64,000 nucleotides of DNA from Octopus vulgaris (lineage: Eukaryota), in the NCBI GenBank assembly GCA_951406725.2, contig OX597828.1, forward strand, positions 33,356,001-33,420,000, read 5' to 3'. The notes beneath the pieces are model-generated. The model saw only the letters and a program-made list of their open reading frames with translations, was not told the origin of the DNA and searched no databases. A program made the position numbers and the translations under genes. The stretch's first letter is position 1. Every line of letters starts with the position of its first letter. Positions 13,013 through 54,910 of the stretch are shown here, in pieces.

Positions 13013-13053
13013 TATTCTTGACAAGTCATACAATGACGAAAACCGGTTGAATA
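13013..13053 (+). ncRNA. Minimal type I hammerhead ribozyme-like motif, U3-A8 variant
   Basis: TATTC-TTGACAA-GTCA(TACAA)TGAC-GAAA-ACCGG-TT-GAATA. Stems I and II are perfect, stem III is palindromic with one extra A. Confidence 0.6.
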
Positions 13054-13189
13054 AATATATATTTATATATTTTATCAATTTCTCATTTTATTAAAATTTT
13101 CTTTCATTTGAGCATTCTGCATTTAAAAAAAAATTTTTCCTTACCTATATATATATATAGAAATATATATACAAAAATATATAATGTTG

Positions 13190-13560
13190 TTGTTGGCATT
13201 CTTTTGTGTCGAGAGACAATGGAGTTGTGCATAGAACAAATCCAGTCTGGTTTTTATTTTGCGCACGCCAGAGCTAGGTGCAGGGACATCTTGGGCAGCC
13301 CAATCGTCAGGATTCCTCTCTTGACTTTGCTGACGTAGTCCAAGGGGTGCAGAGCATTACGTTTGACACCAGCTTGGTTGCAGGACCAACCGGAAGAGTT
13401 TCGAGTCGAACACTAAATCGCCTATGGAGCTCCACTCTGGGTTTCTTTGAAGGTTGTCTTCTTTCTGTAAATCTGGATAGGGGCCCATACCGAGTACTGT
13501 CAGCCGGAGCCAGCTGAGCCCGGGACTTGTGTCAGGCAGAGTCGCCATTCCCTGAAGTAG
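13190..13560. mobile_element. Probable RTE-associated retroelement 5' UTR or SINE fragment
   Basis: GC-richer island (TGTCGAGAGACAATGGAG...CACCAGCTTGGTTGCAGG) resembling RTE/BovB-type leader sequence from memory. Not verified. Confidence 0.35.
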
Positions 13561-14659
13561 TTAAGAAAATCGCTACCCACTGCCTATGCATATATGTGTA
13601 TATATATATATATATATATATATATATATATATATATATATATATTGATTGATTGATTGATTGATTCAATGTTCACTATATACACTATATGTTCACTATA
13701 TACACACACAACTCAACCAATGCGTGCTTTCATATAAATGTCAATAAAATAAACAGAGATATAGGCATCCACAAAGACAGATATATATACAAACGTAGGT
13801 GTACACACATGCACATATATTTTTGTATACAAATACATATATACTTATATGCGTGATTGTGTATGTGTGTGTGAATATATGTGCCTGTACGTGACAATGT
13901 GTTTGTGCATATGCTCACATGTGTGTACATAGGATAACTGTGTTTTGTATACATATATATATATATATATATATATATATATATATCCACATCTGTACGT
14001 TAGATTTTTCTCTCATTCCCACACCGCCACATATGCGCGCAAGTTTGTGGGAAAGAAAGAAAGAGAGAGAGAGAGAGAGAGAGAGAGAGAGAGAGAGAAA
14101 GAAAGGAAGAAAGGGCGAAAGACAGAGCGGGAGAATACTGATTCACATAAACAAGGTGTACGAGATAGCAATAAGAGAGAAAGGCTTCGTGTTTTTCGTT
14201 TAATAAGAGAGGATATTTATCTTGTCCTTTCCTCCAGTAAAAATGAATATTTATCTTTACTTCCGAAGATGTCTGGCGCTCGCCTTGTGTTGCAATTCTA
14301 TCAATGAATTTGCAGCATGAACGAATTAGAAGAATTATGCCATTGAAATTGTCAATGAAGAGAAAGTTGATGCTTAATCCTTGATAACGATTTGCGATTT
14401 CCAAAACACACGCTATGTGTAGATAACAGGCGGCTTCATAGTCATTTTTCAAAACTAACTTCTCGAATCTTATTCCATTATTTTCAGTAACGTAAAGCTC
14501 CCAATATCGTTTCATATAACTTATAATAGTTTATTTCTAATAGTGGTACACAGAAATATCGAGAAAACTGTTATTGTGAATACACTTGGTTCTATTAGGC
14601 AACTGGCATATTTCAAAACCTGGATGAATGAAATATCAATCAATAAAGAAGGAGTTTAA

Positions 14660-14865
14660 GATGGCGAGCTGGCAGAGTCGTTAGAACGCCGAGTAAAATC
14701 ATTAGTGGCATTTTGTCCGTCTTTAAGATTAGTGTTCAATTTCCACCGAGATCATGCTTTTGGGGTCGATAAAATAAGTACCAACTGAACACAGGGGTCG
14801 ATGTAATCGTCTTGTCCCTTTCAACCCAAATTGCTGGCCCTGTTTCAAAACCTGAAGCCAATATA
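14660..14865 (+). mobile_element. tRNA-derived SINE family A, diverged
   Basis: GGCGAGCTGGCAGAGTCGTTAG head and GGGGTCGATAAAATAAGTACCA motif. Confidence 0.8.
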
Positions 14866-15128
14866 GAGAGAGTTTGAAATGGTAACGTAAAGGGAAATAA
14901 ATGACCGCTTTATATAGCCTCTCCTATGACGTTATAAAACTAAAAGGCTCTTCTTTATGTAGTTGTTCCTTTATGTATCTGTTACAATTAGTCATAATTT
15001 TTTTCTCAAATCACATCCTTCAAATAATATGGATGGATTGGATAACATTTATTCTAATGAGTCATGTCTTTTTAAAGAGTATGTAATGGTTCTTTGTGGA
15101 TCCATACAGTCGCTTATTTGAGAACTGA

Positions 15129-15495
15129 GAGGCGCAATGGCCCAGTGGTTAGGGCAGCGGACTCGTGGTCGTAGGATCGCGGTTTCGATTCCCAGACCGA
15201 GCGTTGTGAGTGTTCATTGAGCGAAAACACCTAAAGCTCCATGGTGGTGATCCCTGCTGTACTCTTTCACCACAACTTTCACTCACTCTTACTTCCTGTT
15301 TCTGTTGTACCTGTATTTCAAAGGGCCGGCCTTGTCACTCTCTGTGTCACGCTGAATATCCCTGAGAACTACGTTAAGGGTACACGTGTCTGTGGAATGC
15401 TCAGCCACTTACACGTTAATTTGACGAGCAGGCTGTTCCGTTGATCGGATCAACCGGAACCCTCGTCGTCGTAACCGACGGAGTGCTTCCATCCA
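15129..15495 (+). mobile_element. tRNA-derived SINE family C with ~10-bp TSD
   Basis: A box TGGCCCAGTGG, B-box-like GTTTCGATTCC, (TCCA) tail. TSD TGAGAACTGA (15119-15128) versus TGAGAGCTGA (15496-15505). Confidence 0.85.
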
Positions 15496-51996: not shown

Positions 51997-52261
51997 CAGT
52001 TCTATATTTAAGAGATGAGGAATTATGTACATTATTTACATTTGACGATATTTGTCCTCCTCCTGTTTGTTGTTAACACAACGTTTTGACTGATATACCC
52101 GCCAGACTTCATCCGGTGTCTTGGGGAAATCTCAAACCTGGGTACTCATTCCTAAGGTATTTTTCGATGTTGTTGTTGTTATTATTATTATTATTAATCG
52201 AAATTGGAAACTAGGGGTTAGTAGCCCGCGCTCTTAACCACTACGCCATATGCTCGTGGGC
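51997..52261 (-). mobile_element. SINE-like element: tRNA-like head plus hammerhead-like 3' module
   Basis: Minus strand A box TGGCGTAGTGG followed by TTAAGAGCGCGGGCTACTAACCCC, an (AAT)n spacer, then ACAC-CGGATGA-A-GTCTG..CAGTC-AAAA-CG-TT-GTGT (two core substitutions). Confidence 0.65.
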
Positions 52262-52799
52262 ATGCACACACAGAGACACACACATATATATATATATATA
52301 TTTATATATACATATACAAACATATATATATATATATATATATATATATATATATATATATATATATACAGCTATATTAAATCTCTGAGCGAGATATATA
52401 TATACACGAGCGTGCGTGTCCTGTAACTTAGCAGGTTGGTAAAAGATTAATATCTGACGAATTGCGCATTTCCTTCGTTCTACGTCCAAATAACATTGAG
52501 CTGAGATAGTCTGTTACCGTATTTGATGGCTCATAAAACGCATTTTTTTGCTCACAAAATTTATCTCAATAATTCACGCCGGTAAGCTAATCCCATAAGC
52601 TAATCTTATCCTTGAGGCTCACTACAACGGGCTAATTTTCATCCAGGCAATCTCTTCTACGTAGCCTAACTTAATCATAATAATATTTATTCATCCTTAT
52701 TCCTGTATAGAATACTCTTCTCCACTATCGCTAAACAACTTTTGCAATGTCTTGTAATGTACTGCCTGACTGCTTGCAATTTTGTATGCTTTAATGTAT

Positions 52800-53875
52800 T
52801 ATCTATCTACCTATCTATAACTATCGATCCATCTCTCTCTCTATCTATCTCCCCATTTCTCTCTTTCTCTCTCTCTTTCATTATCTGTCTACATCTATTT
52901 ACCTATCTATCAATCTGTCTATCTATCTATATTTATTTATCTATCAATCTGTATCTATATTTATTTATCTATCTATCTATCTATATTTATTTATCTATCA
53001 ATCTATGTATATCTAGCTATCTATTTTTATTTATCTATTATCTATCTATATCTAATTACCTATATCTATCTATCTATCTATCTATCTATCTATCTATCTA
53101 TCTATCTATCTATCTATCTATCTATCTATCTATCTATCTATCTATCTATCTATCTATCTATCTATCTATCTATCTTTCTATCTATCTCTCTATCTGTCTC
53201 TCTATCTATATCTATCTATCTACATATATCCATCTATATCTATCTATCTATATCAATCTTTCTATATTTATCTATATATATATATATCTATATCTATCTA
53301 CCTTATCCAGCTACCTATATCTATCTATGTTTCTCTATCTATTTGTCTATCTCTATCTATCTACCTACATCTATCTACCTATATCTATCTACCTATATCT
53401 ATCTATCTATATATATATCTATATCTATATCTACCTATGTCTATCTAGCCATATCTATCTATCTATATCTATCTGTATCTATCTGTGTCTATCTATCTAT
53501 ATCTATATCTATATCTATCTATGTATATATATATTTCTACCTATATCTATATCTATCTATATTTATCTGTATCTACCTATGTATATCTATGTATATCTGT
53601 TTATCTATATATATCTGTATCTACCTATATCTATCTATGTATATCTATCTATATCTATCAGTATCTGCCTATGTCTACTTATCTATCTATCTAGCTAGCT
53701 AGCTATCTATATCTATCTGTATCTACCTATGTCTATCTATGTATATCTGTCTATATCTGTCTATCTATCCATCTATCTATATCTTTATCTATATCTATCT
53801 GTATATATCTATATCTATCTATAACTATCTATATGTGTCTATCTACCTGTCTCTCTGTCTGTCTGTCTGCCTGTC
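52800..53875. repeat. ~1.1-kb degenerate (TATC)n microsatellite
   Basis: Visible array. The 318-aa YLSI ORF is read-through. Confidence 0.95.
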
Positions 53876-53919
53876 TAAGTAGACTAAAGCACGTAAAATT
53901 CATCTTTTTGCATCCGCAG

Positions 53920-54110
53920 GTTCAGCTTCTGGAATGCGGCCATCCTGGGGCTCGGCCTTCAACGGATAAGTTGATCAGATCGACTCCATTACTTATTTTT
54001 GAAGTTTGGTACTCATTCTATTCGTTTAATTGAACCAAGAATTTACGGGAGCACAAACAACCATTAGCGAGTGTCAAGTGACTGTGGGTTGGGGGGACAA
54101 GCGTGCACAA
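53920..54110 (-). mobile_element. SINE family B 3' half, diverged
   Basis: GTTCAGCTTCTGGAATGCGGCCATCCTGGGGC...GGGGGACAA, leading into the internal microsatellite. Confidence 0.55.
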
Positions 54111-54214
54111 AGAAACACTCGTACGTACATATGCATGTATGCACCTATGTATATGTGTATATTTATATATGTATGTATGTATATATACACACAGACGGAT
54201 GTGCATAATTCCAC

Positions 54215-54910
54215 ATTTAACAAGGTAAAATATTTAAGATAAAATAAAATTTTACCTGTGTCTCGGAAAATCTAATCTATGGCATTACATGCTTAGTGTG
54301 TGGTAATAATTATATTAGCCAAACAGGATTATCTCTCCGTCGAAGAACCACTCTCCACAAAGAACAAATCCGCCACCCACAATACAGACAGATACAGGTT
54401 AGTGAACACATAGAAAGGTGTGCTAGGAATCTTAATCCTAATTTCCTAATTTTCCCATTCTATCAATGTTCACAGAACACCTCACAAAGAATGAATAAAG
54501 AGGCAACTGAATATGAACACATAACATAATACAGAAAATTATTAATCTTCCAATTAATACCACTAACACTTATACATCCCATACACCATTCACATTACAA
54601 ATCTATATCTACCCTAATTGCACCAAATCCAGAACTACTTGCCTCCCTTACACATGATGTTTTTACTCAGGGACTAGTAGACCTGACACCGTTCATTAAC
54701 CGATGTGAATTCAAAGCAATGATTAGTAAATTTACGAAACCGGTATGCTTTTAAATCTCTTTAACAACTCACAATAATGACTTTTATTACTTTTATTCCT
54801 ACCTCAGTTCATCTAATTGTATATATCTTTCGTTACTTTTCATAAAAAGCCTTTAATTTTTTTTAGTTTCAATGTGCATTTTCGCTTATTTACTTTCTTA
54901 CTTTTCCCTA
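54215..54910 (+). mobile_element. Penelope-like (Neptune-type) 3' end: GIY-YIG fragment plus pLTR with hammerhead
   Basis: FTCVSENLIYGITCLVCGNNYISQTGLSLRRRTTLHKEQIRHPQYRQIQVSEHIERC...FLIFPFY (~54250-54529), hammerhead at 54713-54751, ends at (TA)n. Confidence 0.8.
54713..54751 (+). ncRNA. Minimal type I hammerhead motif, A3-U8 variant
   Basis: AAAGCA-ATGATTA-GTA(AATT)TAC-GAAA-CCGG-TA-TGCTTT. Perfect stems, GUA triplet. Confidence 0.75.

Follow-up and report, generated by a model that had tools for sequence, protein, structure and literature searches.

Can the tertiary pair between nucleotides 3 and 8 of the hammerhead ribozyme be exchanged in nature, and what would keep it complementary once it has been exchanged? 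The question is raised by a 64,000-nt stretch of the Octopus vulgaris genome (G000:C15:33356001-33420000 of 2.8 Gb; hereafter the window), in which a first-pass annotation had pointed to minimal hammerhead motifs displaying all four Watson–Crick (WC) versions of this pair. The 3–8 pair was discovered through crystallographic and mutational work; it places the 2'-OH of nucleotide 8 for cleavage. We find that the pattern is real and non-random, and that it is better supported than a single window could show. The variant pairs are traits of families of Penelope-like elements (PLEs), and probably they are held complementary through their source elements. The findings extend a known system, since PLE hammerheads and a natural U3–A8 pair have been published, and family-fixed A3–U8 and G3–C8 pairs are the addition.

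Hammerhead motifs of the window and the 3–8 pair as a family trait

The descriptor used for the minimal type I hammerhead left N3 and N8 free and demanded at least four WC pairs in stem I, at least two in stem II, GAAA or GAAAA, a self-complementary stem III and UH. It returned six matches in the window, all of them WC at 3–8 (C–G at 21353 and 48728, U–A at 13018, A–U at 54719 and at 43044 on the minus strand, and G–C at 43755 on the minus strand), as compared with a mean of 0.03 WC and 0.10 non-WC matches in 30 dinucleotide block shuffles of the window. The literal C3/G8 of the CUGANGA box is absent from four of the six, where U–A, A–U or G–C stands instead. All four versions of the pair are thus present, and the seven motifs listed by the first pass lie where it had placed them, the seventh (20068-20105) being a decayed C–G copy.

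The strict motifs form a three-way junction with a stem I of 5–7 bp and a stem II hairpin of 2–5 bp. They carry the core U4 G5 A6 N7, A9, G12 A13 A14 A15.1, U16.1 and H17, letters which the descriptor demanded. Stem III is self-complementary, with duplex energies of −8.3 (ACCGGU), −7.4 and −9.8 kcal/mol outside the G–C family. The motifs had been called perfect, a word that calls for qualification: there is an extra A at 13018, an extra G at 43755, a stem II of only 2 bp at 43044, an unpaired base at the centre of the stem III palindrome at 21353 and 20101, and, again at 20101, a stem II whose basal position is an A.A mismatch.

Motif density is higher in the window (six in 64 kb) than in 516,800 bases fetched incidentally (nine; Poisson p 0.001), the latter count being what remained of 14 matches once 5 extra members of the family through which the locus had been fetched were removed. 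All nine incidental motifs are WC at 3–8. The 200 kb adjoining the window hold two motifs, both C–G. When compared with Rfam RF00163 (Hammerhead_1), the C–G motif at 48722-48812 gave a match (E 0.00066, 23.6 bits, below the gathering score of 34), whereas the A–U and G–C motifs of the window gave none at E 10 or better. This supports the first-pass suggestion that such variants are undercounted.

When each variant motif was compared with the genome by BLAST, over 1,100 first-look candidates emerged per motif; these figures are not copy numbers. Family counts refer to the 30 best loci each, window copy included, and a few of the G–C loci overlap the same insertion. In these sets the window's own variant pair is the majority pair in 26 to 30 of 30 loci (Table 1), and the GAAAA of the U–A motif is likewise a family trait (30/30). 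Because the variant pair is fixed in this way, a return of the family consensus to CUGANGA, named beforehand as the outcome that would count against the idea, is not what these loci show.

Genome-wide patterns agree with the family counts. With positions 3 and 8 free, the G–C family pattern gave 8,719 matches as against 6 for the reversed-pattern control, and 94 of the first 100 matches listed carry G–C by hand count. A generic pattern with a CCGG stem III, a non-C letter at 3 and any letter at 8 gave 7,919 matches against 205 in the reversed control; the first 100 listed comprise, by hand count, 74 U–A (some of them nested doubles), 18 A–U, 1 G–C, 4 U.G and 3 mismatched cores. The two classes together amount to about 16,600 non-CUGANGA pattern matches. 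The same generic pattern with C3 gave 242 matches (control, 27), so that canonical cores make up about 3% of the CCGG class, a figure that is not the genome-wide share because other stem III classes are largely C–G. The share of non-CUGANGA cores among all hammerhead motifs lies, as a rough estimate only, between a third and a half; C–G is missing from 3 of the 9 incidental motifs and from 4 of the 6 in the window.

When 136 distinct matches were clustered, each of the 24 clusters had a WC majority (C–G in 11, U–A in 8, A–U in 4, G–C in 1). A permutation value of 6e-11 exaggerates the strength of this result, as the clusters are related to one another and a pattern was used to pick many of the loci. 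The covariation of positions 3 and 8 that had been claimed from one window is therefore found across families, and it recurs within two of them, the 54719 family and a family of 360-nt tandem repeats. As for nucleotide 17, U3 families include A17, while the letter is U or A in the multi-copy families with G3 and A or C in those with A3. The G3 and A3 families, few as the cases are, are thus without a possible WC 3–17 mispair, which fits a remark in PMC3884650 that G3–C8 works worse with C17.

Several switches from one WC pair to another can be followed. Among the first 100 of 244 matches listed for the 54719 family, 89 are A–U, 9 G–C, 2 A.C and none G.U. Eleven G–C rows differ from 27 A–U rows also at 54430, 54526 and 54684, so that they form one real subfamily and count as one switch; a tree in which the G–C rows make one branch (98/90) included both core columns, and the column test was relied on instead. 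L176 (G000:C1:11559080-11559104) holds a G3–C8 motif with a 7-bp stem I and a downstream part resembling the 54719 family, possibly an outgroup suggesting that G–C preceded A–U there. In the tandem family, C–G and U–A members are 84–92% alike. Sister PLEs differ as U–A versus A–U, and a relative (45% identity) of the G–C parent element L253 carries a C–G motif similar to the G–C one (L144:1274). Taken together, these sequences indicate that the pair has switched by double change on at least four separate occasions, with a WC pair as the outcome every time. A further change from U–A to A–U at L166/L167 was discarded as a single copy (46 of 52 matches U–A, one A–U; control, 9).

The tandem repeats of 359–360 nt (G000:C1:20002278-20004542, covering L184-L190; L197; L247) bear GC-richer type I hammerheads with C–G, U–A, C.A and U.G subfamilies and resemble animal non-LTR retrozymes. 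At L152, L168, L242 and L243, subfamilies occur without the first 3' base of stem I (U.U or an extra U beside the core), one of them with U3.G8.

Penelope-like parents and the anatomy of the insertions

The four non-canonical motifs of the window sit in the terminal repeats (pLTRs) of PLEs, and it is nearly certain that the non-canonical motifs belong to these elements. The U–A family is young (98–99% identity). At L141, two same-strand U–A motifs 4,605 bp apart flank frames for reverse transcriptase (RT) and GIY-YIG endonuclease (EN), and L142 has a 588-residue RT and GIY-YIG frame (Pfam RVT_1, E 6.5e-8; GIY-YIG, E 0.0014, below the cut-off). In L141 a 306-residue frame without a Pfam match (L141:5764-6681, minus strand) separates the upstream hammerhead from the RT frame; it may be either a separate gene or a broken N-terminal extension. 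In both A–U families the motif stands about 200–340 bases behind frames mostly 50–70% identical to the L142 protein, and the GIY-YIG remnant at 54221-54502 of the window is 59% identical to it (E 1e-30). For these two families the 3' repeat behind the EN frame was seen, but no two-repeat copy was found. The U–A motif at 13018 and the A–U motifs at 54719 and 43044 therefore stand behind homologous RT/EN genes of sister PLEs, and the first-pass description of their sequence contexts as unrelated has to be given up.

The parent of the G–C family was found at L253: a pair of G–C motifs, 4,261 bp from each other, encloses an RT/GIY-YIG frame, which is interrupted and begins 92 bases past the core. 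The motif is complete in these direct repeats, without an inverted arm, and the 3' untranslated region (UTR) carries long simple repeats immediately upstream of it. The L253 protein belongs to a lineage remote from L142 (26% identity, E 6e-10); its frame gave no Pfam match and a PDB search returned 0 matches, but its atlas neighbours carry RVT_1/GIY-YIG. A CX3-4CxxC linker precedes GIY-YIG in both the L142 and the L253 translations. The G–C family had for a time looked like a non-autonomous short interspersed element (SINE), as 20 of 20 unbiased copies matched only 6–26 bases upstream of the core; this reading was dropped because the parent L253 was found through the shared continuation past the tail.

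Window copies show the insertion anatomy of PLEs, with 5' truncation, inverted partial copies, an optional tail and microsatellite (TA)n targets, an inverted, tailed and (TA)n/microsatellite-flanked layout that has been described for these elements (PMC8557442). The part at 43576-43762 is 96.8% identical to L253:235-421. The 3' ends of G–C insertions fall at two places about 55 bases apart in the frame start, one spanning +86 to +92 relative to the cut and the other lying at +137 or further. The truncated window copies are probably dead.

The attribution to PLE-type minimal hammerheads stands for the four non-canonical families, and for the three C–G motifs it is putative; in the family of 21353, no PLE protein match was found in the four loci fetched. 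Both strict C–G motifs, 21353 and 48728, show the inverted-arm layout, and the 48728 motif, like the G–C motif, is placed close to the middle of such arms. The strict descriptor gave 0 matches downstream of 11 PLE frames whose ends had been located solely through protein matches; two C–G candidates were seen by eye. Coordinates are collected in Table 1.

Table 1. Hammerhead motifs and PLE insertions in the window (positions within the 64,000-nt stretch)
Feature	Position	Strand	Remarks
5'-truncated pLTR copy of young PLE family	12982..13148	+	98–99% identical to both L141 flanking repeats
U3–A8 minimal type I motif	13013..13053	+	GAAAA (extra A); stem III ACCGGU; predicted cut after 13048; same core in 30/30 loci
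Decayed C3–G8 motif	20068..20105	−	C3 at 20101; relaxed scan only, fails strict descriptor
C3–G8 motif, long stem II	21348..21408	+	Within dispersed repeat family; strict descriptor
A3–U8 motif, stem II of 2 bp	43015..43049	−	Predicted cut after 43020; A–U in 28/30 loci
Decayed inverted second copy of the 43044 A3–U8 motif	43447..43481	+	Stem III and H17 altered; relaxed scan
Inverted pair of very short 5'-truncated PLE copies	43576..43855	−	One-sided tail is the start of the parent frame; ends at (TA)n
G3–C8 motif	43713..43762	−	Extra G after A9; stem III AAUAUU; predicted cut after 43720; G–C in 27/30 loci
C3–G8 motif, long stem II	48722..48812	+	Within inverted-arm insertion; strict descriptor; Rfam RF00163
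5'-truncated PLE	54201..54909	+	Endonuclease remnant 54221-54502, then 3' UTR/pLTR with A3–U8 motif; ends at (TA)n
A3–U8 motif	54713..54751	+	Predicted cut after 54745; A–U in 26/30 loci

Other features of the window include a PLE endonuclease remnant of another lineage at 41022-41439 (plus strand), with a decayed C3–G8 hammerhead candidate at 42190, about 750 bases downstream of it and absent from the first-pass list, and a mariner-type transposase remnant at 55833-56507 (minus strand; Pfam Transposase_1, E 1.6e-16). Tandem repeats occupy 5749-6232 (unit 240), 23109-23621 (23/272), 28567-28842 (143) and 30776-31304 (117 bases), and an inverted pair of 212 bases, 95% complementary and 3 kb apart, lies at 3139-3350 and 6409-6620. 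The window is AT-rich and simple repeats abound; the first 150 of 490 matches listed in an Rfam scan of the whole window at E 10 are microsatellite matches. At 43657 and 43665, A>G and T>C letters are far commoner in a pair of runs presumed to be RNA than in two large ones that look like DNA (for 43657, 617 at a depth of 4,670 versus 881 of 1,186,356; contigs, different individuals), a weak hint that could reflect A-to-I editing of the inverted arms.

What may keep the pair complementary

We consider it probable that the variant 3–8 pairs are kept WC within each PLE family, likely through selection on source elements for a fold that is predicted to cleave itself weakly, either as a dimer or with the aid of a protein. 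Any such selection would have acted on source elements and not on the truncated copies seen in the window. The proposed course of events starts from elements with the motif in both repeats flanking the RT/GIY-YIG frame, whose window copies are 5'-truncated, often inverted and tailed insertions at (TA)n, and from a 3–8 pair that differs among families and subfamilies with a WC majority in every cluster. If the pair needs complementarity more than identity, lineages would drift through wobble-type intermediates (U.G, C.A, A.C) and would persist once pairing has been restored. The palindromic stem III may then join two motifs, as in the models of PMC4209133 and PMC11167929, in transcripts of tandem or full-length elements and possibly with help from the element's own protein, and cleavage would follow after H17. 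Reverse transcription would start within the 5' part of the frame, mostly on uncut RNA, so that genomic copies would keep the whole motif.

Published work on the pair lends this account some footing. The 3–8 pair is described as a feature of the active conformation and not of the ground state (PMC3884650). In the PLE of the lizard Anolis, single C3G or G8C changes abolish cleavage and the double mutant rescues it partly (PMC11167929).

Several observations weigh on the other side. In the same Anolis system, the hammerhead cleaved only in the presence of protein, hammerhead mutants were without effect on insertion and no RNA reads ended at the cut (PMC11167929). When the double mutants of a type III hammerhead were scanned completely, the G:C swap alone rescued activity (PMC9901934), which makes A3–U8 the most surprising and least certain of the forms. 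Genomic copies retain the uncut motif. Of 10 unbiased G–C insertions, none had the 5' end of its shorter arm three bases or less from the predicted cut; a value of 7 of 31, from a set ranked by likeness to the window copy, is confounded by stem I microhomology and was not used. In the G–C family the stem III duplex is very weak (−0.2 kcal/mol). Non-WC cores, moreover, can amplify. By hand count, the first 100 of 171 matches listed for the tandem family comprise 63 C–G, 13 U–A, 15 C.A, 8 U.G and 1 C.U cores, the C.A cores occur in tandem arrays, and a U.G subfamily whose first stem I pair is broken has amplified as well; either wobble pairs are tolerated or copying needs no cleavage. Finally, copies and sister families are not independent, and the protein tree is poorly resolved (5 changes, the least possible being 3, with shuffles as low in 27 of 200) and does not settle the order of the switches.

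Much of this can be read differently. The motifs may be hammerhead descendants kept as a structural element, for protein binding or for control of translation or reverse transcription, or they may be near-neutral passengers, in which case A–U and G–C cores would cut little or not at all and the 3–8 pairing would be kept for folding, or merely loosely. The amplified C.A and U.G subfamilies and the uncut insertions, with no arm among the 10 unbiased copies ending at the cut, fit such descendants, as do the dispensability of cleavage for insertion in vitro (PMC11167929), the spread of Naiad PLEs without canonical hammerheads (PMC8557442) and the low activity of an A–U double mutant (PMC9901934). 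On the other hand, the pair belongs to the active conformation (PMC3884650) and has stayed WC through repeated double changes, which points to a catalytic fold, and GAAA, palindrome and UH are kept across families with differing stems, although the descriptor demanded these letters. We regard this alternative as unlikely, but as one to be reckoned with. The first-pass statement that compensatory double changes imply selection for catalysis was an interpretation and is put too strongly, given that C.A and U.G subfamilies amplified, that any selection acted on source elements and that a natural U3–A8 pair is already in print (PMC3088659; PMC4209133).

A founder effect, in which a few source elements chanced to have complementary letters at 3 and 8 and were then amplified with no selection on the pair, appears very improbable. 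Copies within a family do represent one event, and three of the four variant families form one clade, which leaves only about four independent switches; yet the double switches, at least four, each end in a WC pair, and the sole amplified exceptions seen are wobble-type steps on transition paths. A third alternative, in which chance produced the folds or they arose as a side effect of the long inverted repeats that hold some of them in an AT-rich window full of simple repeats, is already refuted by the near-empty shuffles and reversed controls and by the complete G–C motif in the direct repeats of L253.

Selection on source elements for a weakly cleaving fold thus remains the reading we prefer. 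A bolder version of it would hold the 3–8 pair to be freely interchangeable, with A3–U8, which was inactive in the published type III scan, and G3–C8 as working natural cores reached through amplified wobble intermediates, and with non-CUGANGA cores as the third to half of the genome's motifs that CUGANGA and Rfam surveys do not see. We put this version forward tentatively, as possible but falling somewhat short of probable. In either version, animal hammerhead censuses based on CUGANGA, and claims that certain PLE families lack hammerheads, may undercount. Fixed families, subfamilies on both sides of a switch and the wobble steps between them amount to natural rescue experiments, and they let one ask which surroundings permit an A–U core. 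They also bear on whether PLE hammerheads are kept for cleavage or as passengers, a question raised in PMC8557442 and PMC11167929. In the literature searched, nature had swapped the 3–8 pair only to U–A, and the A–U and G–C families extend that range.

Comparison with known hammerheads and Penelope-like elements

Small hammerhead variants tied to PLEs and cleaving as dimers are reportedly the subject of Lunse, Weinberg and Breaker (2017), to judge from its title. Minimal hammerheads (min-HHRs) of PLEs, the dimer model, an extra base after A9 and a natural U3–A8 pair are all known (PMC4209133; PMC3088659; review, PMC6765202), and G3–C8 is known as an engineered rescue (PMC3884650; PMC11167929; PMC9901934). 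No report of a natural A3–U8 or G3–C8 pair was found in the literature searched; Lunse 2017, Przybilski and Hammann 2007, Nelson and Uhlenbeck 2008, Hammann 2012 and the supplements of PMC4209133, which lay outside the search, may show such rows.

The closest relatives are the min-HHRs described by Cervera and de la Pena (2014, PMC4209133), among them a U3–A8 variant with about 1,300 matches in the Cercyon PLEs of Schistosoma. Shared features are the type I topology, a short or absent palindromic stem III, the location in pLTRs, mostly single truncated copies, opposite-strand pairs 100–700 bp apart, an extra nucleotide between 9 and 10.1, many sequence families per genome and U3–A8 itself. The main text of that paper names U3–A8 only, whereas in the octopus entire families are fixed for A3–U8 or G3–C8, the CCGG stem III class consists mostly of non-C3 cores and GAAAA occurs in one family. 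With the hammerheads of Perreault et al. (2011, PMC3088659) our motifs share the change from C3–G8 to U3–A8, an insertion in the GAAA strand (U13a) and a 2-bp stem II. U3–A8 is the only exchange given in its treatment of core variation, and a rare one, in contrast to the four WC pairs and amplified wobble steps that are found here in one genome.

As regards the elements themselves, the CX2-5CxxC linker has been defined for Neptune and Nematis PLEs, and the CX3-4CxxC linker found here is typical of these clades and is not described for Penelope or Poseidon (PMC8557442). The Poseidon PLE of Anolis (PAc; Frangieh et al., 2024, PMC11167929) resembles the octopus elements in the hammerhead at the pLTR/frame junction, in AT-rich targets, in insertions derived from uncut RNA and in two internal starts of reverse transcription that give rise to an optional tail. 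It differs in the pair itself: the PAc ribozyme as described carries C3–G8, with G3–C8 as its engineered rescue, whereas in the octopus G3–C8 is natural.

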